A program made the translations under genes and the position numbers. The notes below the pieces were generated by a model. That model was not told the origin of the DNA. It did not search any database and saw nothing but the letters and a program-made list of their open reading frames with translations. DNA of 64,000 nucleotides, taken from NCBI GenBank assembly GCA_051294905.1, contig CM119372.1:26290001-26354000 (forward strand). The letters run 5' to 3'. This document shows, piece by piece, positions 7,021-45,490 of this stretch (position 1 is its first letter; each line of letters begins with the position of its first letter). The DNA comes from Botryllus schlosseri (taxonomy: Eukaryota).

Positions 7021-7653
7021 GCATATGAAGTAACTCTTGGAGTTATACAATCTGATATACTTGACACTCAGCTATCAGCCTACGGGAACCTGGAGGAACT
7101 TTGTTTTTGAAAATTATTGTATACCATAAAAATCATCATTTCGGCAAATATCTCCGCAACAGCTTTATCCAGGAATAAGCCAATGCATGCATATGATGCA
7201 ACTCTTGGAGTTATATAATCTGATACTTGAAACTTATCTGTCAGCCCACGGGAACCTGAAAAATAAAACTGTTTTTGAAAATTTTTCTACAGTCCAGGCT
7301 CTGGGGGCTCCTCCAGGCTCCAGGCTCCTCTGGGGTGATTTGGACACAATTTATTACTAAAAAACGTTGCGGTACCGTTTACCAGACTTGATTTGGGGTC
7401 ATAGTCTATTAAATAAATCCGAATATTTACGGTTGGTACTCGTCAAGGGTAATAGTCAGCAGCTTGTCAATACAGTGTACAATTGACAAACAAATGTCTG
7501 CGGATGCTGGTCCTAACCTATTTTTTCAAACTCCGTGAGTGCTTTTCCAGATTGTTCATTTTATACTTCAACAAATAGAATTTAATATACAATTGACTAA
7601 CAAACGTCTGCAAAGTTTGGTCCTAACCTTCTTTATAAACTACTTGAGTACAG

Positions 7654-28415: not shown

Positions 28416-29250
28416 CAGGGGTGGCCAGCCTTTTCGGCCCAAGGGCCACATGAGATTTAATAACCATTGCACGGGCAACTTGAATGTTGATAACTTCTTT
28501 TTTAGTCGTCCGACAGGAACGAACCGAATTCGGTGAAATTGAAAACAAGACTCATATGACTACGCTTTAAAATTGATAACAATTATGTCATGAAAACACT
28601 TTGTGCAACGGTACAATGTGCAGTCAAGCCCTGGTTGCGCGAAGCACGAAATTTTTTCGAAGGTAATGAAGGAATTCGATCAATAAATATATTGCTTGGA
28701 TATATTGGAGGTCGCCTCATAGCAATGGGCTCATTTGGCAAGGACAGGATTATTTGGCGTTTTAGACATATAAATAGCGAATGTTTCGGTGAATATGTCT
28801 CTGTTAGTTTGTGCAAATGTTTCATCGTCGACGATCACGCTTCGAGTGCACAAGCAGACTCGCATGTTGGGCGACACGTTGCTAGTATAGTTGGACTCAA
28901 TTCAGTATTTATAATTTCCAGGAGGGGTTCCAATACTAAATGCAAGAAATGTGACAATAAATCATGCGAAGAGCTAAGAAAAAATCCAAGTCAAATAAAT
29001 CTGGTACGGAATATTTTACTTTATGATCATGTACGAATATCTGCGGTGATTGTGGATGGCCCCTGGTTACACCAATGCGTCGAAACTGATGTTTTAGTCA
29101 TCATCAAATTTCGCGGACAGGCTGATCAAATTTTGGTTGGCCTTGCAATTTACCTGATGTTATATCTAATTTCGAGAATTACCTCGCAGGCCACACAAAA
29201 CCTTCTCGCGAAGCACATTTAGCCTGCGGGAGACGGTTTGGCCGCCCCTG
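28416..29250. mobile_element. hAT MITE
   Basis: Ends CAGGGGTGGCCAGCC / GTTTGGCCGCCCCTG; TSD ATCTATGT/ATCTGTAT (2 mismatches). Confidence 0.7.
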
Positions 29251-29626
29251 ATCTGTATCGTTACTAATAACAGCGATTGATGATACGTAAAAATCCCATT
29301 ACAGTTATTATATTAGTAATTTAGAGATACCATTGAAAGCAATTGTTTTTATGATAAAAAACAAAGAGTCGTAGTCGGAGTGGACGTCAGGGTCATTTTC
29401 ACTAACTCCGACTCCAGTAAGTATTTTTTCCACGACTCCGACTCCGACTCCAGCCACTACAGTTTTCACGACTCCGACTCCATCAAGCGAAAATTAGTCA
29501 AACTTCGACTCCGACTCCACAGCCCTGGTCGTACATCTCAGCGCTTGCAACAAAGAATTCGTGAACACGTCCCCCGTCAAATTAGGAAACCGTAGGGTGA
29601 TGCCATGTCTTCTTCATCATCACAGT

Positions 29627-32600
29627 AGTAGTTATATAGATCGGTCGTGATTTGCCTGGGGCTCTTATGGGCCCGCTGGTGACCTGCCGCGAAACTCGTG
29701 TTGGTGACCCCACCCTTTTGACCCCCCCTTCCGCTGGTGACCTGCCATGTGTTCTTATGGGATCTCTGGTGACCCCACCCTTTCAGGTATAGGGCTCGCT
29801 GATGACCTGCCGTGAAAACTCGTGTTGGTGACTCCACCCTTTTCGAGTCTCTATCGCTGATGACCTGCCGTCTCGTCGGTGATACCACCCTTTCAGGTAT
29901 ACGTTGTGTCGATGACCCGCCTGATAACGTTACGGGTATAGGGATCTCTGGTGAAGTGGTGTTGAATATCAAGTATAGTAAACAGTGACGCCATTACCTA
30001 ACGTGTATATTCAAAATTATTAAATATGACCAATTTGAAGTAATCCCAACGTTTACGGTGAGTGCGACAATGATATATCGTTATTCTTATGGATGCGGTG
30101 ACACGGTGACGTAGCTGATATAGACGCAACATGATAACGTTACAGGTATAGCGTTCGCTCACACGGTTCTACATGAAGATATCGTAGTTCAGGCGTGACA
30201 AATGACCGATCGTGTTCTAAGTCTTTCCTCGCTATTGATTCCTACGTAACCTGAATAATACTTCAGATCGGATTATTCGCACCTTCCGTACCGCTGTTTC
30301 GCACCTACAAAATAGTCTGCTGTTCACAGTCGCAACTTCATCGCGATAGCACAATTTTCGCACCGCGATCAGTAGAACAACACCGCGCTAACCCAGTTGT
30401 CGAATCACATAGGCTAAACATTTCTTGTGAATGGAAATATTGTATTACAGGGTACAAATACGCAAACTATTCTTTCAATTCAACAAGTCTAGTTAACTGA
30501 TCGATTTTCAATCTGCCGACACAGTTTTTAACACGAGTGAGTTGATATTTCTTCCCGCGTACGAGCGAGGTAATAAGAATATTACCTATTAAGTAATAAG
30601 CACCGAATAACAGAACCGTCGCAGACGGTGACTTGAATATCCAAGATTTGATACTTTTCGCGATCGCTATATGTTTCACGTTGACTTTGGTTGCGTGATG
30701 CGAATCATGAGAATATTCAATCAATGTGTCAATTTATCAACTTGAAATGAAACTCACTACACAAACCAAGTTGATTCGTATTTGAATGTGTTGATCCGGT
30801 ACAACTCTAATCCTTTGAGAAATCCATTTACCGCGATCAGTTGATTCGAACGTAACTTGAATATTGCTGACTCCAACTTCAGTCGCATCGAATTATTCAC
30901 ACATTCCACGCTGCTGTTTCACACCTATAGAATCAATACCAACTAACTAAACAAGAATCAAGAATCACAAGTATGCACATACAATAATTGTATTTATTAC
31001 TGAGAAATCAAACGCTTAACAAAAACACGCAACTTATCATTTACCAACTCAAGCATTACCAAAAAAAAAATTCAGGTATTGTTGATTGAAAATCCTTGAG
31101 TCCTTATTATCAAAAATGTTATAGTGCGGCATCGGAATCCATTCGCGGGATGTACTAAAGTTAAATTCAGACATTCCAAAATGAAATGTCTCGACTTTAA
31201 CATAGTCTGAATTGAAATAGATTGACAAACATGACTACCATCTTTCCAAGTACCATTTCGATATTATACGCACATTGATTTGAAACAAGTAATGAAACAT
31301 TACAACTCTATTCACGATCTGGCTTTCCGTTTGTCAAAGAGAAATTTTAACATCTTACCATACTCAAAAGAATTATTCATAACATTAACCGGTGTTAAAA
31401 ATATAGTTTTCACTTACTTGATTATAACACTACAACTCGCAAACTTGAATTAATTCGTCCTGGTTGTATTCATATGACCGATAATTTTTATTCAACGGTA
31501 AAGGTCGTTACTATTCTGTAAGACAAAGTATTTACTAATCGGTGCATATACGCGATTTGACATAAACCTATTATATTTTGAGTATACGAGATTTGAATGT
31601 CTGAACAATAACTGAGAATTAAATTATCACAATTGAATCCATATATGACAGCGTAAAAGATATTGGAATGTCAGCAACTCTGTACGGTCATAGTTACTAC
31701 CGCTAATTTACCCGGCCAACTCGTCATGATCATTCCTGAAATCAACACAAACGCGACCACTGACTTGAGTTAACCACAAAACGGCATCAAGTTTTTAATC
31801 AGCTTGCAGCTGACAGATTATTCGAATGCATCGATGGGGAATATTATTGAACTCGTCGATATTGTTACTTCAACAAATTATCGCTTACGTCGACTGCGAA
31901 AGTTAATATCGAATGGTAAGACTTGATCGCATATTTGTTGAACACAGACATGACAAAAAACATTACCGAGATTTTATAAACTAGTCATATTACTTTTCAC
32001 ATCTATCAATATCAGAATACAAGTCATCAAACTTTTTGTTAAATGTAACATAGCACTCTTGGAATCGGCTTCGTTATAGTCATACAAATTGTATTAAACC
32101 CAACACCAAAACAAAAGAACTTTCAAGCTCATTGAAATCAAATCATTCATCTTCGACTTGCGCTTTATTAGATTGCACGCAACAATTCGTTACGAATGAG
32201 CTGTAACCAAAGTTAAGAAATCTTTGTGCCCACAGATATGGAAGATGAATATAGCTAACACAATCACGAATCGACGTTTCAGAGTATTTCACGGATGTAA
32301 TAAACTTGTTAGTGTCGCCTATCTAAAATTATGCATGCGTTCGATTTCCATACCGACTGTTGCGATGTTTAGGATTCGCTTACAATGACCAAGAGTGAGG
32401 ATTTAACATCAATGTCGTTACTGTCGGTATTCACAACAGAGAATCGAAACATTACACAGTGTGAAAATATATCTTTGATATCAAAGCACTATCCCAAGTA
32501 CACGATTAATACTCAACTCCGTTCACACTTTCCATAGAACGTGCTAAATGTAAAATATCGCGAGGAGACTTTGATCATTACAAAAGTAAATTGGGGTATG

Positions 32601-35600
32601 TTTGCTAGACGCATCCAATTCAGTTAGAAATTTCTGGTGCACAACAATCGTAATATCAAGGAAGTACTTGCTACACTGTAATTCACTAAACGCGTTTTGC
32701 ATTGTTGGTTGTTTGTAGTATTGATTGAAATTGTTTTTCAACCCTCAAATAATAATTCCCGACATGAGACCAAGCCGCTGAAAGTCATTACCATCACAAA
32801 GAAACAATTTGTACGATGTTTGCCAAATGTGTCCTATAGTTAGGTGTACTAGAATTATTTGTGTAACCCACCGATAATGCAATCAAAAATTTTTCCGTTG
32901 TCATTCACTAAAGTAAATGTCATCACAATACTCTGTCACTAAAAGACGTTACTTGTATGTGATTGAACCCCTAGCGATTAACTCACTAAACCGAACTCCA
33001 AAGAAATTTTACTCACTCGACGGATATGAAACAGCGTCGCTTAATCGGTCTACATCGTTTTTCTAAATGTAAATCATATCCACCCAGCAGAAAACCATTT
33101 TCACTCGCTTGGTGATGAAACCAAAGTCCCCATTTGATATTTTATTTTTGGTCAAATACTTTGCAATGAACACATTTGAGTGGCTGAGCTTTACATCATC
33201 AAGCTGTCATCTGTAAATCAAGATTACATCCAACTTGTAACTGTATCGTTTAACTACCGGGTTGCATCAGTTTGCTATTTTTGTCATTTAGTGACTGCTG
33301 AACATACCAAACGATACACATTCACTTACGAAATACTGTGTTGATCGTAATTTCCATCATCGTGACAATCGAAGTACATTTGTTTCGAGTTCATAACAAC
33401 CGACTTTTCTATGACATGATGAATTTTTGAAAAGTTTAGAAGATTGGTGCACCTCGCGAAAAATAATATACTACTCACATTGATACTGTTACTCCATTGA
33501 CCGGTATTTTCAAACGAGTCGATTTTCAACCGAGCAAAATTTATTACTTGAGTTGTCCCGCTTACTATATTTAAATGTAAACTCGCCCGTCTTGCAAAAC
33601 CACAACAAACAATGATAAAAAGTACACAAGCAAACACAACAAGTTTTACTTTTGTAGGACACTAATTATTATTCCACGCATCTCATTTCATACTAAGTGT
33701 ATATGAAAGATATTCATGGTACACGAAAATATTCGATATTCCTTGCTACGAACATACGCAATGATTGGTGACGCTTTCACACTATTTCGATTTAGTGTAA
33801 CAAAAACAACAACAACAATTTTCACTCTCTTGACTTATGAAAACAACAGACGAACCTTCATTCAATATTTTGTTTTTGTCAACTAGTTACTTTTTCATGA
33901 GACCGCCACAACTCTTACAAAAGTACGAAAGATATTTACATCACACAAAGTAATCAACTTTACTCGATATTTTCACATTACGAAACTAAAGAATGGTTGG
34001 TTTGACTCTACAAACTGTTTCGTTACCTCAAGACCTTTATTGTCTGAATGGTTGTTCATGTGTCTTAAGAACCAAATAGTTCAACACAGCACTAGTACCA
34101 ACAGTAACATCAGAGTTGTTTACACAAAAGTTTGTATGTGCGCAGTATGCGAATACCACGTGTAAGTCCAGCACAATTGTAGTATCCAGCTGAGATTAGT
34201 TAACACCAATTTATTACAACGGAGCCACGTAAACTTTCGTGAATGTAAGGCATACTCACTTCTCGATATTCTGTCAATGTCATAGCAATAAACCAACTAC
34301 TCCAAAAACAGAGTACATATGTTTTCTAGTTACGGTGCTTACATCTTACACACAAATCTATCTACTTTGCTAACGAAAAGCGCTGTGTCATCACATGATT
34401 ATCCTCACAACAACCAGTAGATGGAGCTGTATTAAAATGTTCCTAACCCCTTGCACACCAGTGACAAATTGTTGTTCAGCGTCAAGTCCCCATGTTGAAG
34501 CGTACATTAAAACAGCGCAATTCAATTAAAACCACGAATCTATTTTCATTTCCTCACAAACTGCCACATACAGAAAAGTAAATTTTATTTTCCCAACACA
34601 TACTTGTAACCAATCGCTTTCATTAAACACACAACTCCATAAAAGTATTTACTTTCTGCAACATAGACATTCCGATGTAATCAAGAAATATTTTTATTAT
34701 TCAAAATCATCGACTTCTGTTTACGGCGTTAGTGTGTGCATGTCATACATTAAGGTCCGTATTAAAATGCAAACGACACGACTGAATGTCAGGAGATAGA
34801 AGTCTATCGCATAGGTTTACATGTGGTCTTCGCTACGGTTTCAAAAAACGAATCATCTCTTTTGCATTGATCGAGACCGAGCAAGTTAGTTAATGGCAAT
34901 GATTGTGTTTGTCATATGTGAATAATAGGGTTACTGTCAAATCTACATACAACAACCTTCTGGCACTCATAATAGCAATTTCATTCTCTCCCTTCGTAAT
35001 TGTATACTCACGACAAGTATATTGTACAACTCGACAGCTACGTTTAACAAGACCAACGACACTGAGCCCACGACGTTTACCTGTGTAAAATTACCACTTT
35101 CACTTGACAGTCCATCGTTTACCTGACTAAACATATCACTTTCCTTTGGAGATCTGACGTTTACCCAGAGTAACAAACCTTTTTCACTTGGAAATATATT
35201 TTTTCCCTGGGTTACAAACCTTTTTCACTTGGAAATATATTTTTTCTCTGATCAACAAACCATTTTAACTCGGTAGTCCGTCGTTTACCTGAGTAAAAAT
35301 ATCATTTTCACTTGGAAAAATACTTTTACCTAGAGTAACTAATCATTTTCTTTTAGAAATATATTTTCTCCCTGGGTAACAAACTCTTTTCGTTTGGAAA
35401 ACTATCATTTACCTGAGTACCAATACAGTTTTCACTTGGAAATCTATCTTTTACCTGGGTAACAATACCATTTTCATTTTGAAATCTGACAAACACACCT
35501 GACAATTTGATATTTTTGTATATTGTTACAACGGATAGCGACAAAATGTACACCAACAACAACTCCAATACATTTGTGTAATCGCATATTCACTTGTGCT

Positions 35601-36218
35601 GATGCAACTCATCAAAATCATCGGTTACCCACATGCAATGTGCTGTTGTACATCGACGTTTATGTTTTTGGAAAATTGGACAATAGACTTCGATAGTTCT
35701 GTGATGTCCGGGCTCGTGCTTTGGATTTTCCAGAGTCAAAATGTCTGAATAAAACACCTCCTTGACGATAGTTGGTATGTGGATAACGGTGTTCGGAAAA
35801 CGGTTGGATTTATGTCACCCATCGCGATAACAATTCCAGGTCGAGTTTTCCCCCGCGTGTTTACTATATTGTGTCTTTATTGGTCATGTATGTCTCGACA
35901 TTCAGTTTGAAATCGGAAACCCTGATAAAGTATGTAACCGGATCCGGATATCAGCTCTGAATCGATAAACCAATGAACAATATTCAAAGTAAACATGTTA
36001 CACCCTGTGTTTCCACGAAAAAATACCATCCAGACATACGTCGCGCTTGTTTGCCCACATCAGTATACGCGTAAATGGAGGTGTGTGACATTGCATGCAA
36101 TGTGTTGGTATACAAACATCGATCCACAGACATTATCATAGCCGGTAGTTTTGATGTAGATCGAATGTCATCACACCCGATAACAATGTCATACCAATAA
36201 GCCACATTGCAATGACTC
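29627..36218 (+). repeat. Left arm (6592 bp) of giant inverted repeat
   Basis: Reverse complement of 37145-43736; mirrored ORF coordinates sum to 73363 (e.g. 30467+42896, 35353+38010). Confidence 0.97.
35075..35490 (-). repeat. Degenerate ~42-nt tandem repeat, 14-aa period (mirror copy ~37873-38288)
   Basis: Unit ~TTTACCTGGGTAACAAACCATTTTCACTTGGAAATATA; translates as FPSENxxxTQVxDx; frameshifted. Confidence 0.75.
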
Positions 36219-36324
36219 TGAGTCAATCTGAAGCATGACATACAGACACACAAACATGGAACCGTAACATGGGTTATTCGCACGACGGTGAAAGTGAACT
36301 ATACAGCGTATACCAATAGAGCGT

Positions 36325-36627
36325 TCACAGTCGAATATGCGAACCACGCACAATCACATACCCTGGTTTTTGTTGGATATGTACGAAACCAATAAATCGA
36401 TACATTTCTGTTCCTTCTACGTCAATAATACAAGCGTCATTCCAATGCATCGTTCGAATGTAAGGTTCGTCGGGTGTAAAACCCATGTCAAATAACACCA
36501 AAGTGTGCTTTCCGTGTTTTATTATTTCCACCGACGCTTCTTGTCTGTGTCGTAACACTATGGTGTGGGGAGTTGAAAAACGGTGGATTGTGAAACGGAT
36601 TGACATGACCAACAGAATCGACGTCAA
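36325..36627 (-). CDS. Hypothetical ~100-aa protein in the unique spacer of the palindrome
   Basis: Longest ORF wholly within the spacer, with protein-like composition; no family recognised; start uncertain. Confidence 0.25.
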   Translation of the reverse strand: MTSILLVMSIRFTIHRFSTPHTIVLRHRQEASVEIIKHGKHTLVLFDMGFTPDEPYIRTMHWNDACIIDVEGTEMYRFIGFVHIQQKPGYVIVRGSHIRL

Positions 36628-37144
36628 TAGACTTGTGACGATGTCGTTTCAAAATGATACCGATCTCTTGTGGCGACGACCGTTTCGAAATGTCACCGGA
36701 CGAACTGGACCCTTACGATGATGTGTTTTATGATTGCGTGTGAAATCGCGAGGTAGTGTTCTATTGTGGTGTACGATTGCAGTCTTCATTCCACAGAAAC
36801 ACACCTTATTGGATCACAGTATCAGTCCGAGATTTGCAGAATCACTGTTCACGATATTTATCTGGAGTCGTTACGTGGGAGTAGTGACATCCATGCATCG
36901 TGTGAAAGACTGATCGCAATCATTTCGAGCACCCGTGATTCGATAGTTCACCTTGGTCAAACGCTGCAGTCTCAGCAGAAAACTTCGGTGTCGACAACAC
37001 GATGGATATTGACCGATGTATCCAATTGGTCTGGGTGGTCTGTCCGGAGATAGGGCCATGACTATCTTGTAATGTTACAACACGATAACACCATCGAGTA
37101 AATCAGTGAACGGTGCCGAAATATCGATGTAATAGCGCGGACTC

Positions 37145-40100
37145 GAGTCATTGCAATGTGGCTTATTGATATGACATTGTTATCGGGTGTGATGACATTC
37201 GATCTACATCAAAACTACCGGCTATGATAATGTCTGTGGATCGATGTTTGTATACCAACACATTGCATGCAATGTCACACACCTCCATTTACGCGTATAC
37301 TGATGTGGGCAAACAAGCGCGACGTATGTCTGGATGGTATTTTTTCGTGGAAACACAGGGTGTAACATGTTTACTTTGAATATTGTTCATTGGTTTATCG
37401 ATTCAGAGCTGATATCCGGATCCGGTTACATACTTTATCAGGGTTTCCGATTTCAAACTGAATGTCGAGACATACATGACCAATAAAGACACAATATAGT
37501 AAACACGCGGGGGAAAACTCGACCTGGAATTGTTATCGCGATGGGTGACATAAATCCAACCGTTTTCCGAACACCGTTATCCACATACCAACTATCGTCA
37601 AGGAGGTGTTTTATTCAGACATTTTGACTCTGGAAAATCCAAAGCACGAGCCCGGACATCACAGAACTATCGAAGTCTATTGTCCAATTTTCCAAAAACA
37701 TAAACGTCGATGTACAACAGCACATTGCATGTGGGTAACCGATGATTTTGATGAGTTGCATCAGCACAAGTGAATATGCGATTACACAAATGTATTGGAG
37801 TTGTTGTTGGTGTACATTTTGTCGCTATCCGTTGTAACAATATACAAAAATATCAAATTGTCAGGTGTGTTTGTCAGATTTCAAAATGAAAATGGTATTG
37901 TTACCCAGGTAAAAGATAGATTTCCAAGTGAAAACTGTATTGGTACTCAGGTAAATGATAGTTTTCCAAACGAAAAGAGTTTGTTACCCAGGGAGAAAAT
38001 ATATTTCTAAAAGAAAATGATTAGTTACTCTAGGTAAAAGTATTTTTCCAAGTGAAAATGATATTTTTACTCAGGTAAACGACGGACTACCGAGTTAAAA
38101 TGGTTTGTTGATCAGAGAAAAAATATATTTCCAAGTGAAAAAGGTTTGTAACCCAGGGAAAAAATATATTTCCAAGTGAAAAAGGTTTGTTACTCTGGGT
38201 AAACGTCAGATCTCCAAAGGAAAGTGATATGTTTAGTCAGGTAAACGATGGACTGTCAAGTGAAAGTGGTAATTTTACACAGGTAAACGTCGTGGGCTCA
38301 GTGTCGTTGGTCTTGTTAAACGTAGCTGTCGAGTTGTACAATATACTTGTCGTGAGTATACAATTACGAAGGGAGAGAATGAAATTGCTATTATGAGTGC
38401 CAGAAGGTTGTTGTATGTAGATTTTACAGTAACCCTATTATTCACATATGACAAACACAATCATTGCCATTAACTAACTTGCTCGGTCTCGATCAATGCA
38501 AAAGAGATGATTCGTTTTTTGAAACCGTAGCGAAGACCACATGTAAACCTATGCGATAGACTTCTATCTCCTGACATTCAGTCGTGTCGTTTGCATTTTA
38601 ATACGGACCTTAATGTATGACATGCACACACTAACGCCGTAAACAGAAGTCGATGATTTTGAATAATAAAAATATTTCTTGATTACATCGGAATGTCTAT
38701 GTTGCAGAAAGTAAATACTTTTATGGAGTTGTGTGTTTAATGAAAGCGATTGGTTACAAGTATGTGTTGGGAAAATAAAATTTACTTTTCTGTATGTGGC
38801 AGTTTGTGAGGAAATGAAAATAGATTCGTGGTTTTAATTGAATTGCGCTGTTTTAATGTACGCTTCAACATGGGGACTTGACGCTGAACAACAATTTGTC
38901 ACTGGTGTGCAAGGGGTTAGGAACATTTTAATACAGCTCCATCTACTGGTTGTTGTGAGGATAATCATGTGATGACACAGCGCTTTTCGTTAGCAAAGTA
39001 GATAGATTTGTGTGTAAGATGTAAGCACCGTAACTAGAAAACATATGTACTCTGTTTTTGGAGTAGTTGGTTTATTGCTATGACATTGACAGAATATCGA
39101 GAAGTGAGTATGCCTTACATTCACGAAAGTTTACGTGGCTCCGTTGTAATAAATTGGTGTTAACTAATCTCAGCTGGATACTACAATTGTGCTGGACTTA
39201 CACGTGGTATTCGCATACTGCGCACATACAAACTTTTGTGTAAACAACTCTGATGTTACTGTTGGTACTAGTGCTGTGTTGAACTATTTGGTTCTTAAGA
39301 CACATGAACAACCATTCAGACAATAAAGGTCTTGAGGTAACGAAACAGTTTGTAGAGTCAAACCAACCATTCTTTAGTTTCGTAATGTGAAAATATCGAG
39401 TAAAGTTGATTACTTTGTGTGATGTAAATATCTTTCGTACTTTTGTAAGAGTTGTGGGGGTCTCATGAAAAAGTAACTAGTTGACAAAAACAAAATATTG
39501 AATGAAGGTTCGTCTGTTGTTTTCATAAGTCAAGAGAGTGAAAATTGTTGTTGTTGTTTTTGTTACACTAAATCGAAATAGTGTGAAAGCGTCACCAATC
39601 ATTGCGTATGTTCGTAGCAAGGAATATCGAATATTTTCGTGTACCATGAATATCTTTCATATACACTTAGTATGAAATGAGATGCGTGGAATAATAATTA
39701 GTGTCCTACAAAAGTAAAACTTGTTGTGTTTGCTTGTGTACTTTTTATCATTGTTTGTTGTGGTTTTGCAAGACGGGCGAGTTTACATTTAAATATAGTA
39801 AGCGGGACAACTCAAGTAATAAATTTTACTCGGTTGAAAATCGACTCGTTTGAAAATACCGGTCAATGGAGTAACAGTATCAATGTGAGTAGTATATTAT
39901 TTTTCGCGAGGTGCACCAATCTTCTAAACTTTTCAAAAATTCATCATGTCATAGAAAAGTCGGTTGTTATGAACTCGAAACAAATGTACTTCGATTGTCA
40001 CGATGATGGAAATTACGATCAACAGTATTTCGTAAGTGAATGTGTATCGTTTGGTATGTTCAGCAGTCACTAAATGACAAAAATAGCAAACTGATGCAAC

Positions 40101-43100
40101 CCGGTAGTTAAACGATACAGTTACAAGTTGGATGTAATCTTGATTTACAGATGACAGCTTGATGATGTAAAGCTCAGCCACTCAAATGTGTTCATTGCAA
40201 AGTATTTGACCAAAAATAAAATATCAAATGGGGACTTTGGTTTCATCACCAAGCGAGTGAAAATGGTTTTCTGCTGGGTGGATATGATTTACATTTAGAA
40301 AAACGATGTAGACCGATTAAGCGACGCTGTTTCATATCCGTCGAGTGAGTAAAATTTCTTTGGAGTTCGGTTTAGTGAGTTAATCGCTAGGGGTTCAATC
40401 ACATACAAGTAACGTCTTTTAGTGACAGAGTATTGTGATGACATTTACTTTAGTGAATGACAACGGAAAAATTTTTGATTGCATTGTCGGTGGGTTACAC
40501 AAATAATTCTAGTACACCTAACTATAGGACACATTTGGCAAACATCGTACAAATTGTTTCTTTGTGATGGTAATGACTTTCAGCGGCTTGGTCTCATGTC
40601 GGGAATTATTATTTGAGGGTTGAAAAACAATTTCAATCAATACTACAAACAACCAACAATGCAAAACGCGTTTAGTGAATTACAGTGTAGCAAGAACTTC
40701 CTTGATATTACGATTGTTGTGCACCAGAAATTTCTAACTTAATTGGATGCGTCTAGCAAACATACCCCAATTTACTTTTGTAATGATCAAAGTCTCCTCG
40801 CGATATTTTACATTTAGCACGTTCTATGGAAAGTGTGAACGGGGTTGAGTATTAATCGTGTACTTGGGATAGTGCTTTGATATCAAAGATATATTTTCAC
40901 ACTGTGTAATGTTTCGATTCTCTGTTGTGAATACCGACAGTAACGACATTGATGTTAAATCCTCACTCTTGGTCATTGTAAGCGAATCCTAAACATCGCA
41001 ACAGTCGGTATGGAAATCGAACGCATGCATAATTTTAGATAGGCGACACTAACAAGTTTATTACATCCGTGAAATACTCTGAAACGTCGATTCGTGATTG
41101 TGTTAGCTATATTCATCTTCCATATCTGTGGGCACAAAGATTTCTTAACTTTGGTTACAGCTCATTCGTAACGAATTGTTGCGTGCAATCTAATAAAGCG
41201 CAAGTCGAAGATGAATGATTTGATTTCAATGAGCTTGAAAGTTCTTTTGTTTTGGTGTTGGGTTTAATACAATTTGTATGACTATAACGAAGCCGATTCC
41301 AAGAGTGCTATGTTACATTTAACAAAAAGTTTGATGACTTGTATTCTGATATTGATAGATGTGAAAAGTAATATGACTAGTTTATAAAATCTCGGTAATG
41401 TTCTTTGTCATGTCTGTGTTCAACAAATATGCGATCAAGTCTTACCATTCGATATTAACTTTCGCAGTCGACGTAAGCGATAATTTGTTGAAGTAACAAT
41501 ATCGACGAGTTCAATAATATTCCCCATCGATGCATTCGAATAATCTGTCAGCTGCAAGCTGATTAAAAACTTGATGCCGTTTTGTGGTTAACTCAAGTCA
41601 GTGGTCGCGTTTGTGTTGATTTCAGGAATGATCATGACGAGTTGGCCGGGTAAATTAGCGGTAGTAACTATGACCGTACAGAGTTGCTGACATTCCAATA
41701 TCTTTTACGCTGTCATATATGGATTCAATTGTGATAATTTAATTCTCAGTTATTGTTCAGACATTCAAATCTCGTATACTCAAAATATAATAGGTTTATG
41801 TCAAATCGCGTATATGCACCGATTAGTAAATACTTTGTCTTACAGAATAGTAACGACCTTTACCGTTGAATAAAAATTATCGGTCATATGAATACAACCA
41901 GGACGAATTAATTCAAGTTTGCGAGTTGTAGTGTTATAATCAAGTAAGTGAAAACTATATTTTTAACACCGGTTAATGTTATGAATAATTCTTTTGAGTA
42001 TGGTAAGATGTTAAAATTTCTCTTTGACAAACGGAAAGCCAGATCGTGAATAGAGTTGTAATGTTTCATTACTTGTTTCAAATCAATGTGCGTATAATAT
42101 CGAAATGGTACTTGGAAAGATGGTAGTCATGTTTGTCAATCTATTTCAATTCAGACTATGTTAAAGTCGAGACATTTCATTTTGGAATGTCTGAATTTAA
42201 CTTTAGTACATCCCGCGAATGGATTCCGATGCCGCACTATAACATTTTTGATAATAAGGACTCAAGGATTTTCAATCAACAATACCTGAATTTTTTTTTT
42301 TTGGTAATGCTTGAGTTGGTAAATGATAAGTTGCGTGTTTTTGTTAAGCGTTTGATTTCTCAGTAATAAATACAATTATTGTATGTGCATACTTGTGATT
42401 CTTGATTCTTGTTTAGTTAGTTGGTATTGATTCTATAGGTGTGAAACAGCAGCGTGGAATGTGTGAATAATTCGATGCGACTGAAGTTGGAGTCAGCAAT
42501 ATTCAAGTTACGTTCGAATCAACTGATCGCGGTAAATGGATTTCTCAAAGGATTAGAGTTGTACCGGATCAACACATTCAAATACGAATCAACTTGGTTT
42601 GTGTAGTGAGTTTCATTTCAAGTTGATAAATTGACACATTGATAGAATATTCTCATGATTCGCATCACGCAACCAAAGTCAACGTGAAACATATAGCGAT
42701 CGCGAAAAGTATCAAATCTTGGATATTCAAGTCACCGTCTGCGACGGTTCTGTTATTCGGTGCTTATTACTTAATAGGTAATATTCTTATTACCTCGCTC
42801 GTACGCGGGAAGAAATATCAACTCACTCGTGTTAAAAACTGTGTCGGCAGATTGAAAATCGATCAGTTAACTAGACTTGTTGAATTGAAAGAATAGTTTG
42901 CGTATTTGTACCCTGTAATACAATATTTCCATTCACAAGAAATGTTTAGCCTATGTGATTCGACAACTGGGTTAGCGCGGTGTTGTTCTACTGATCGCGG
43001 TGCGAAAATTGTGCTATCGCGATGAAGTTGCGACTGTGAACAGCAGACTATTCTGTAGGTGCGAAACAGCGGTACGGAAGGTGCGAATAATCCGATCTGA

Positions 43101-43736
43101 AGTATTATTCAGGTTACGTAGGAATCAATAGCGAGGAAAGACTTAGAACACGATCGGTCATTTGTCACGCCTGAACTACGATATCTTCATGTAGAACCGT
43201 GTGAGCGAACGCTATACCTGTAACGTTATCATGTTGCGTCTATATCAGCTACGTCACCGTGTCACCGCATCCATAAGAATAACGATATATCATTGTCGCA
43301 CTCACCGTAAACGTTGGGATTACTTCAAATTGGTCATATTTAATAATTTTGAATATACACGCTAGGTAATGGCGTCACTGTTTACTATACTTGATATTCA
43401 ACACCACTTCACCAGAGATCCCTATACCCGTAACGTTATCAGGCGGGTCATCGACACAACGTATACCTGAAAGGGTGGTATCACCGACGAGACGGCAGGT
43501 CATCAGCGATAGAGACTCGAAAAGGGTGGAGTCACCAACACGAGTTTTCACGGCAGGTCATCAGCGAGCCCTATACCTGAAAGGGTGGGGTCACCAGAGA
43601 TCCCATAAGAACACATGGCAGGTCACCAGCGGAAGGGGGGGTCAAAAGGGTGGGGTCACCAACACGAGTTTCGCGGCAGGTCACCAGCGGGCCCATAAGA
43701 GCCCCAGGCAAATCACGACCGATCTATATAACTACT
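37145..43736 (-). repeat. Right arm (6592 bp) of giant inverted repeat
   Basis: Matches the left arm except about a dozen substitutions and two compensating 2-bp indels seen by eye. Confidence 0.97.
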
Positions 43737-45490
43737 CACAGTCTCTAGTTACCATGCGTGATTATGACCAAGTAACAGCATGTAATTCTGCCAACGGATA
43801 GCCCCTCTTGAAACACCGAGAGTGTGCAAAACATTACAATAACAATCACTTCTCCATAGTTGCTCGCAGTCGTTCTCTTTTTCATTTGAAGGTCTTTGAA
43901 TCAATGATTATAAAGCTGCCAAAGCCGATCCTCTGTCGCCAGAAGGAACATCTCTTCACGCTGGAATAGTTCCTTCAGTGTTGTTTTGTCATACAGCTGT
44001 TTTACAGCTGATTTTGTGTGTGTCGCACCATAGTGTCCTATATGGTGTGGACACAAGCAAATCTCACGGGTCAGTGAAATTGGTTTAAGTCACACTTTCC
44101 ATTTGGTCAAAGGCAACGTTACGGCCATTATTGACCGGCTTGCCGAGCGCTAAATTCGATAAAACAGATTTTAACGCTTTTAAAATCTTAGGCTTTTTTT
44201 GCAGAACTGACCATCACTTTTCAAATTCATACCGTGACCTCACCGGGACTAGAATCTGAGCTGTTCCAATTTAAAAGCGGGCGGGGTGGAGCGTTCTACC
44301 GTTTCCGTCCCCTATTAACACTCCAAGACATGTCTAGGGTTTTTTGTAAGACTAAATAAACAAACTTTTTTTCTAAAAAATCTCTTTCTCTCTTTCATTT
44401 TTCAAGACTGACCCCCGGGATGGCGTCAGAGAGTTGAAAATGATGCATCCGTGCGTAGCCACCGTTGCCTGGTTTCGAACAAGCCGCCAACAATGGCCGT
44501 AAACCGCGCGACTCGTCAGATATCGAAAAATCAAAATACATAAAAATGTGAATATGGGCGTGGTCAGTGAGTGGTCATAATGGTCAAGTTCAAGATGAAT
44601 ACCGAATCGTATCCCTGCCGCCCATTTAATGGGATGAAACAACGTGGTATACTTTCTCCTGTCGTATCCAACCATTTGCAGGCAGAGTAAACCAGTTTAT
44701 GACTCATATTCGGTCACGAACTTGGATTTTAACTTGACTATGTCCTTGGAAATCACCGAAGCGTGACCACAATTAACAAACTCCCTCAGAATACATCTCA
44801 CAACAAGGTTTGATGGTTGAAACGTTGAAAAATTACACCAGCGTGTACTCAAAGATGGTGTGGACACTCGAAAAAAATCACGTGACCGTCATGCCCTGAT
44901 ACCTTTTCTGACTTAGTTATTGTCGATTCGTCAGCAGCACTAATTAAAGATAGAGTCGTTGTTGGTCTTTGTTGATTTTGACTGTGTTCCATATCGAGTT
45001 GGGTGACAGGATTTAGTATGGTATATTTTGATGCTGTCATCTAGTACTGCACCAAGTTTCAAGGCTGTGACTCAATGTTTAGCGTAGTAATTTCGCTGTC
45101 AAAATCGAGTATTTAGTAGACGAGCGCGCACCGATATATTGCAGACTTTGAACGGAATTACCATGCTAATCATTGAGTGACAATCCTGAAACTTACTGCG
45201 AAGTTAGATAACACAACCAAGATGTACCGTACCAAATTTCGTCATCCATCTCGGTATGGAACACTTTCAAAATTCACATATACCAATATCAAATTTTGCG
45301 AAAATTCCCTTACGCGGTAGGCTGAAAGCCAAATCAGCGCATCAGACACTGGATACTCGACTTTGTTAACGTAGTTACTGCTGTAATTATTAGGTCACAG
45401 CCTTTAAACTTGGTACAGTGTTAGATTCCGTCATCAAGGTATATAATACGAAATTTTGTTATCCATCGCCGTATAGAACACAATCTAACT

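Follow-up and report, generated by a model that had tools for sequence, protein, structure and literature searches.

How does an element that is almost wholly a palindrome, with the ends of a Polinton/Maverick and none of the Polinton genes, come to lie in the genome of Botryllus schlosseri, and how is it multiplied? The question is raised by a 14,110-bp insertion at positions 29627-43736 of a 64,000-nucleotide stretch of assembly GCA_051294905.1 (contig CM119372.1, positions 26,290,001 to 26,354,000 of the forward strand; C2:26290001-26354000 in the genome that we searched, 495 Mb in 219 contigs). The whole stretch is called the window hereafter, and coordinates refer to it unless stated otherwise. 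A preliminary description of this DNA had taken the insertion for one end of a Polinton copied back on itself. Our analysis favors another reading, which we hold to be probable: the insertion belongs to an abundant family of palindromic, one-gene Polinton/Maverick derivatives that depend on a helper, and is a very young member of it.

The palindrome makes up 93% of the insertion. In a repeat search it fell into three inverted blocks that adjoin one another (2880, 2279 and 1444 nt, all of them 100% complementary), and 926 nt separate the arms. At the left junction the target-site duplication (TSD) CACAGT is followed by AGTAGTTATATAG, and at the right junction CTATATAACTACT is followed by CACAGT. 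Inverted-repeat search and junction reading therefore bear out the AGTAGT...ACTACT termini, the duplication, the 6,592-bp arms and the 926-bp loop given in the preliminary description. The features are as follows, C8 and C9 being gene-bearing Polintons of the same genome and ORF standing for open reading frame.

29621-29626, no strand: left copy of the TSD CACAGT (junction sequence, paired-copy comparison)
29627-36218, plus strand: left arm of the palindrome, 6,592 bp (inverted-repeat search, arm comparison)
29627-29670, plus strand: terminal tip starting AGTAGT (87% identity with the C8 tip over the first 44 bp)
29678-29894, plus strand: subterminal array of two alternating direct repeats, GRTGACCTGCC four times and GGTGAYNCCACCCTTT four times, at a spacing of ~58-65 bp (mirror array at 43469-43685)
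29627-30570, plus strand: stretch that can be aligned at 87% to the left end of C9 (mirror at 42793-43736)
35160-35485, no strand: array of 41-bp tandem repeats in the inner arm (mirror array at 37876-38287)
36219-37144, no strand: unique loop, 926 bp, with at least 40 full-length or near full-length copies elsewhere in the genome at 94-100% identity
36328-36606, minus strand: ORF of 93 codons from Met, stop at 36325-36327, under purifying selection (7 subfamilies)
37145-43736, minus strand: right arm, reverse complement of the left (inverted-repeat search, arm comparison)
43737-43742, no strand: right copy of the TSD CACAGT (junction sequence, paired-copy comparison)

The two arms differ only by A10 versus A12 (near 31061 / 42302) and TGTG versus TG (near 33337 / 40024), with 0 substitutions. 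Length differences in simple runs are typical of sequencing or polishing error and are therefore silent on whether the palindrome is an artefact; the preliminary description had counted arm-to-arm differences as an argument against one, and this argument falls. The 41-bp arrays (35160-35485 and 37876-38287) consist of ~8-10 units with 68-71% matches, and the arm differences of other copies tend to cluster in this inner region. Tandem arrays cover ~330-410 bp of each 6.6-kb arm.

Judging by their sequence, the ends of the element are Polinton/Maverick ends. According to Barreat and Katzourakis (2021, PMC8097293), vertebrate Mavericks have an end motif (AGT)2/(ACT)2 or (AG)3/(CT)3, a perfect 6-bp duplication, terminal inverted repeats (TIRs) of 46-1,447 bp and sizes of 12.7-24.6 kb. 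The window element has both cis features, the (AGT)2...(ACT)2 ends and the 6-bp duplication, while its TIRs are outside the Polinton range, 6,592 bp being 4.5 times the vertebrate maximum. The same kind of termini is found in C9, a 23.9-kb copy with a 746-bp TIR, which matches element positions 1-944 at 87% and has the same alternating pair of subterminal repeats as the window element (TGACCTGCC four times and CCACCCTTT three times). C9 encodes a polymerase (DNA_pol_B_2 in two ORFs, with 27.6 bits for a cut-off of 25.8, and 16.8 bits), an integrase (rve in two ORFs, with 24.6 and 27.8 bits, both under the cut-off of 32.6) and, additionally, an ATPase-like ORF. It is decayed, with TIRs 95.6% alike and with polymerase and integrase in pieces. 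Two other ORFs of C9 (L047:6487-7392 and one of 400 aa, L047:8800-9999) were noticed as leads only: they are like Atlas clusters named major capsid protein, with a double-jelly-roll (DJR)-like domain on 14-16% of members, and like nameless Atlas clusters partly from Preplasmiviricota.

C8 is better preserved in its polymerase frame, which is open for 1300 codons; it measures 16,496 bp and has TIRs of 644 bp at 98%. It starts AGTAGTTAGTATGATCGGTCGTGACC, has the same tip as the window element (87% over 44 bp) and is 85% identical to element positions 552-944, with different subterminal repeats (GAYTCGTA, ten times). Five further gene-bearing copies (C9 and L054-L057) start with AGTAGT, and four of these use a third repeat, GAYTCGCC. 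Across the gene-bearing Polintons (L053:1427-2026, L054-L057, L046:301-900) the AGTAGT tip is common and there are at least three types of subterminal repeats (TGACCTGCC/CCACCCTTT, GAYTCGTA and GAYTCGCC). The types look like lineage-specific protein-binding sites. Of the single termini, L022 and L030 have window-type repeats and continue into Polinton interior at 92%, and seven others continue into palindrome arms. A search with the Polinton polymerase gave 91 scored matches from 349 candidates, with many frames open for 1200-1300 codons. Termini in common with gene-bearing copies of the same genome (C9; L022/L030; C8) would mark the window element as a non-autonomous Polinton derivative. The earlier assignment of its ends to Polintons/Mavericks holds for the motif, for the 6-bp duplication, and for the tip and subterminal repeats found in gene-bearing copies.

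The window copy belongs to a large family. In each genome search the best 40-150 candidates were scored, and the copy numbers are to be read as minima or as loose counts from a first look. The first 400 bp of the element gave 50 matches of 89-100% identity (best 40 of 1565 first-look candidates scored), and the loop gave 40 scored matches of 94-100% (best 40 of 1033). As the preliminary description had anticipated, the two queries brought up other palindromic copies with duplications of their own, plus gene-bearing Polintons with related termini. We read eight paired elements (C18, C7, C10, C2b, C5, C16, C15 and C9). Four of them (C18, C7, C10 and C2b) form palindromes in which the arms are collinear, 5.9-6.35 kb long and 99.1-99.95% identical, around loops of 275-929 bp. 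C5 and C16 share this build, save that one arm of each has taken up a nested foreign insertion of ~6 kb; C15 is a complex nest of inverted repeats, and C9 alone among the eight has ordinary TIRs, which measure 746 bp and are 95.6% alike. C10b, closely related as judged from its loop, has arms of 3,627 bp at 99.945%, the left one truncated. Four elements of 12.9-14.4 kb were sampled 4-5 kb inward from each end, and all four are reverse-complementary at 99.8-100%; they have a terminus of the C8 type (82-97% identity) and arms 71-87% like those of the window. One palindromic body is thus combined with two kinds of subterminal repeats or more, and gene-bearing copies have each of these as well. 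Fully read or sampled, twelve elements besides the window copy are palindromes. Perfect 6-bp duplications were found in 10 of 10 pairs, all different (CACAGT, GACGTC, GACGAC, TACAAC, TAGGTC, CACATG, CACCTT, GGCATC, ATCGAA and ATCGTG), and the mobile palindromic class that the preliminary description predicted does exist, at many loci. In public runs, the palindromic family reaches very high word depth in three samples.

What the arms contain speaks against their origin by copy-back. Neither pPolB, rve integrase, ATPase, capsid nor protease genes were found in the window element when it was compared with C9 (tblastn, tblastx) and with the left 5.6 kb of C8 (tblastx). In 29627-37200 the stop-to-stop ORFs reach at most 138 aa, and 11 of them have at least 80 aa. 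The 15 ORFs of C9, compared by tblastn with the window and the other seven elements, gave nothing beyond one 23-aa subterminal match. The tblastx comparison with C9 in full and with the left 5.6 kb of C8 gave 87 high-scoring segment pairs, of which a single short one lies past element position 1600. No match to Rfam was obtained for window 29000-44400. The earlier remark that no ORF was recognised holds for the Polinton genes that it named; the loop holds the conserved 93-codon ORF. When the whole of C9 and the left 5.6 kb of C8 are taken for comparison, Polinton-like sequence makes up no more than ~0.95-1.5 kb of either 6.6-kb arm. The arms consist of a Polinton end of ~1-1.5 kb and ~5 kb of non-coding DNA with no relation to the Polinton sequence compared. 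Since in this comparison the likeness is restricted to the outer arm, the arms are not a copied-back Polinton half.

The comparison among copies points in the same direction. Between copies the arms are 65-90% alike in a patchy manner, with large blocks replaced, and these divergent subfamilies have the axis and the loop in common, which is not the pattern of a palindrome arising anew during helper replication. In C18 and C7, arm and loop meet at element positions matching those of the window copy (~6597 and 7511-7518), and large structural differences among subfamilies are always mirrored in both arms. Since axis and loop are common to divergent subfamilies, the palindrome was inherited and not made at the window locus. 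Its architecture appears to be old and passed on from copy to copy. We have therefore rejected the copy-back of one Polinton end at this locus, both on this ground and for the small amount of Polinton-like sequence in each arm.

The loop contains a small gene of the element's own, kept by purifying selection. The minus-strand ORF 36328-36606 recurs in the loops of C18, C7, C2b, C16 and C10b; it was not found in the short loops of C10 and C5, nor in C9 or the left 5.6 kb of C8. Seven subfamily representatives have the same Met and stop and no frameshift. The ratio of nonsynonymous to synonymous substitution rates (dN/dS) is 0.17-0.44 in 21 of 21 pairs, with proportions of synonymous differences (pS) up to 0.66. 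Pooled over pairs, the ratio of nonsynonymous to synonymous proportions (pN/pS) is 0.37 in the ORF frame; read in the two remaining frames, the same alignment gives 0.85 and 1.16. Four pairs show a significant excess of synonymous differences (p = 4e-6 to 2e-3). The ORF is also the best-conserved part of the loop across five subfamilies. Among 23 ORF copies, the frame is fully open in 18, ends two or three codons early in 3 (which makes 21 open for at least 105 codons) and is shifted in 2; taken alone, 21 open copies of 23 at 96-99% identity are about the neutral expectation. Upstream of the ORF, a part of the loop (window 36909-37151) is 90-97% conserved among the window, C18 and C7 and ~40% across five subfamilies; this stretch could be a subfamily-specific promoter or leader.

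Similarity searches tell little about the encoded protein. A word-indexed protein search returned 1 near-identical protein and an exhaustive profile search returned P0002, 66% identical; beyond these two, no relatives of weight were found in two protein libraries. Two multi-repeat WD40 proteins in the profile search (E 1e-7 and 6e-6) were taken as a blade-like resemblance and given no weight. The search in Pfam gave no family at E up to 10, and the cluster look-up gave no names. One of five predicted models reached a predicted local distance difference test (pLDDT) score of 72, the other four being at 38-42. The best structural matches are small-heat-shock/CS-type sandwiches (Foldseek E 0.03 in PDB and 0.009 in BFVD, Z 4.8), all below the noise levels of the tools. 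Our guess is that the 93-aa protein is a factor that aids the use of, or the competition for, helper replication or packaging machinery. In the genome, P0002 has 150 scored matches out of 1195 candidates, 143 of the 150 without a stop; among the matches listed, many ORFs form inverted pairs 4.7-14 kb apart. A second palindromic family was noticed at L089 (C3:16032000-16033000) and L090 (C3:16036973-16037973), two 1,001-bp pieces that are perfect reverse complements. Its resemblance to the window is limited to the ORF part (76% over 285 bp), and in this other family the small gene, with a 66% identical protein, sits in both arms.

Within a copy, the arms of the palindrome have stayed alike. They are collinear and 99.0-100% alike within each of seven fully read copies, the window copy included, and arm substitutions per kb amount to 0 (window), 0.55, 0.94, 0.95, 1.49, 1.90, 2.36 and 7.46. 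The window copy is very young. Events that followed insertion are unmirrored: C5 contains a 6.3-kb insertion (L031:5281 to L032:1616) with an 8-bp duplication, ACAACGAT, in its left arm only, and C16 has one of ~6 kb (L035:2474-8434) only in its right arm. This suggests that the arms are made identical during propagation and decay independently afterwards.

We propose that the palindrome arose once, long ago, and would have been passed on ever since. The integrase of a resident Polinton would insert it and the protein-primed polymerase of that Polinton would replicate it, as the duplication, the termini and the many independent insertions suggest. Being palindromic, the element would offer the same recognised end on both sides. 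In each round of propagation its arms would be made equal again, and after insertion they would decay independently. The likeliest equalising step would be a snap-back, in which a displaced single strand folds along its self-complementary arms of 6.6 kb to a hairpin, an extreme panhandle of the adenovirus type, and is then repaired or completed on itself; this route is plausible enough to be taken seriously, and we put it forward tentatively.

Several observations weigh against the proposal of a helper-dependent palindromic family with arms equalised in propagation. The family is known from integrated copies only. In the gene-bearing C8 the TIRs have no more than 98% identity, therefore Polinton propagation does not always equalise ends. 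In-place gene conversion between close inverted repeats would also keep arms alike, and a 6-kb insertion in one arm is compatible with it. The sole fully read gene-bearing copy with the repeat type of the window, C9, is decayed, and five other gene-bearing copies use different subterminal repeats; the helper of the recent burst is therefore not pinned to any copy. The ORF protein has no Pfam family and, from the five predicted models and the structure searches, no firm fold. Two further points count neither way: a single RNA run (~6% of it read; 98 reads placed, all matching in part) has no reads on the loop, and the Logan contigs of public runs, with 60-130 bases, are too short to bridge the junctions of the window locus.

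The explanation that best survives beside ours is that of an ordinary non-autonomous DNA transposon, moved by the same helper integrase, with arms kept alike by in-place gene conversion and with neither hairpin intermediate nor packaging. It would account for the high arm identity in every copy, as expected from inverted repeats with a loop of less than 1 kb, for the lesser likeness of distant TIRs (98% in C8, 95.6% in C9) and for the fact that only integrated copies are known. Against this, subfamily differences are mirrored and arms collinear in 7 of 7 fully read copies, while the events after insertion (two insertions of ~6 kb and up to 7.5 substitutions per kb) are unmirrored, and a gene under purifying selection together with a narrow length range is unexpected for a passive transposon. 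We regard gene conversion of a passive transposon as rather unlikely, with a real share of the probability.

The lengths of the palindromes, derived as native lengths from the element coordinates, introduce a further question, that of packaging. The fully read palindromes measure 14,110, 13,569, 13,338, 12,147 and ~13,356 bp, C5 and C16 without their insertions ~13.7 and 13.9 kb, and the sampled ones 14,437, 13,561, 13,545 and 12,946 bp. The gene-bearing copies are of 16,496 bp, 17,381 bp and ~15.6 kb, with 23.9 kb for the decayed C9. Palindromes of 12.1-14.4 kb thus stand against 15.6-17.4 kb for the three uninterrupted gene-bearing copies, i.e. ~73-88%, which confirms the near-normal length claimed in the preliminary description. 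Gene-less adenovirus genomes of less than ~27 kb, out of 36 kb, rearrange to larger sizes, according to PMC3186006. The parallel with adenovirus packaging is suggestive and no evidence in itself. The narrow native length, about four fifths of the helper, may fit a packaging constraint and make the family satellite-like, something that we consider possible and somewhat doubtful. Taken to its full extent, the family would be a true polintovirus satellite in an animal: a linear, hairpin-shaped genome of one gene, in which one Polinton end was copied to give two origins and two integrase sites, the second arm is regenerated by snap-back in each round, the length is kept packageable by the helper, and the subterminal repeats were switched, or co-evolved, to follow helper lineages. 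This complete scenario is on present grounds unlikely, if far from fanciful. If it were true, the narrow size range and the selected gene would be the first genomic evidence of a packaged, virus-like phase in animal Polintons.

The remaining explanations are much weaker than helper-dependent propagation. The family could persist mainly by a benefit to the host, read-through transcripts of the palindrome giving long double-stranded RNA and small-RNA silencing of Polintons with the same termini. Transcription would indeed yield a 6.6-kb hairpin RNA with ~1 kb in common with Polinton ends; however, only 98 RNA reads, all partial, were found in one RNA run, and hundreds of dispersed recent copies with a selected ORF better match a selfish element, which leaves host benefit very improbable. 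A foldback transposon of another superfamily, with an unrelated transposase and Polinton-like ends by chance, would have the long inverted arms, the internal tandem repeats and the lack of transposase that are foldback traits. This is hardly credible and already close to refuted by what the element has in common with pPolB- and rve-encoding ones (a tip of 44 bp, subterminal repeats, homology over as much as 944 bp), by the 6-bp duplications in 10 of 10 pairs, and by the (AGT)2/(ACT)2 motif, reported for Mavericks in PMC8097293. A fold-back assembly or read artefact, in spite of window arms identical save for two simple-run length differences and of a locus that no public contig (60-130 bases) bridges, can be dismissed for practical purposes, since the flanks are different unique DNA with a matching duplication, as the preliminary description rightly argued, this recurs at many loci, the same architecture occurs with different sequence and duplications at 12 or more other loci, and some copies have one-arm insertions.

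Outside the insertion there is little to add. The preliminary description saw a host Penelope frame continuing across it, which we could not confirm: no open frame abutting either junction, on both strands, exceeds 43 codons, and the Pfam search of the eight ORFs flanking the insertion gave no family. Close to the insertion, the left flank has a 36-bp tandem repeat of 2.1 copies (29405-29481). None of 15 joints, out of 84 in public runs, skips the whole element, which counts neither way. In RNA run X23, loose read ends occur at 42380-42413 and five reads enter poly(A) behind 42413, which may mark a transcript end. In the right flank, 12-14 reads of the same run break at 44029 and 44066 (interval 44029-44066); these may be splice sites of a flanking gene.

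In full-text searches of the literature, including that on tunicates and ascidians (Repbase and subscription journals being outside the search), we have found no description of palindromic, foldback, defective or non-autonomous Polintons/Mavericks of this kind; PMC5499653 names 'non-autonomous polintons' only for Tlr1. What is newly added here is the link of the palindromic family to gene-bearing Polintons and the selected loop gene. The family bears on the open question whether animal Polintons/Mavericks still act as viruses with free replicating, packaged genomes. It would give a handle on that question if a parasite keeps only the Polinton ends, about four fifths of the length and its own selected gene over deep divergence, and outnumbers the Polintons. 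Arm divergence is, besides, a built-in insertion clock akin to dating by long terminal repeats, and the family offers a natural example of inverted repeats that evolve in concert at the kilobase scale.

Among known systems, the element is like Polintons/Mavericks (PMC8097293) in the end motif, the 6-bp duplication, the inverted termini and a length inside 12.7-24.6 kb, and resident copies encoding pPolB and rve have the terminus of the window element. It differs from those described in the same source by the absence of the defining genes and by inverted termini of 6,592 bp instead of 46-1,447 bp, and also by its 93-aa ORF, of which neither C9 nor the left 5.6 kb of C8 gave a match. Butterfly polintons have TIRs of ~2 kb that hold hexon and adenain genes, according to a preprint (10.1101/2025.02.07.637071). 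They illustrate that the inverted termini of Polintons can reach kilobases and still insert, but they are gene-bearing and have Polinton genes in the TIRs, whereas the window arms are non-coding, non-Polinton past ~1.5 kb, and make up nearly the whole element.

In foldback transposons such as FB of Drosophila, the arms consist of short tandem repeats and the duplication is other than 6 bp. The window element is like them in that its inverted arms are very long and evolve in step, tandem repeats lie inside it, its loop is short and its copy number is high; it is unlike them in its Polinton termini and 6-bp duplication, its arms of mostly unique sequence and its conserved loop ORF. Helper-dependent adenovirus genomes and tail-to-tail dimers (PMC3186006 and PMC2518115) offer a parallel for replication: gene-less protein-primed replicons need terminal sequences only, and genomes shorter than ~3/4 of the helper length rearrange to larger ones. 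Those are laboratory constructs, unintegrated and with no gene of their own, whereas replication and packaging by a helper are presumptive in the palindromic family. Satellite viruses, satellite nucleic acids and transpovirons (see also PMC3671162) likewise lack replication and capsid genes, resemble the helper little except at the ends, have a small gene of their own and exceed the helper in copy number. The palindromic family is known, in contrast to them, only as integrated copies in an animal genome, and its window member has the combination typical of satellites, with neither replication nor capsid genes and with a gene of its own under selection.

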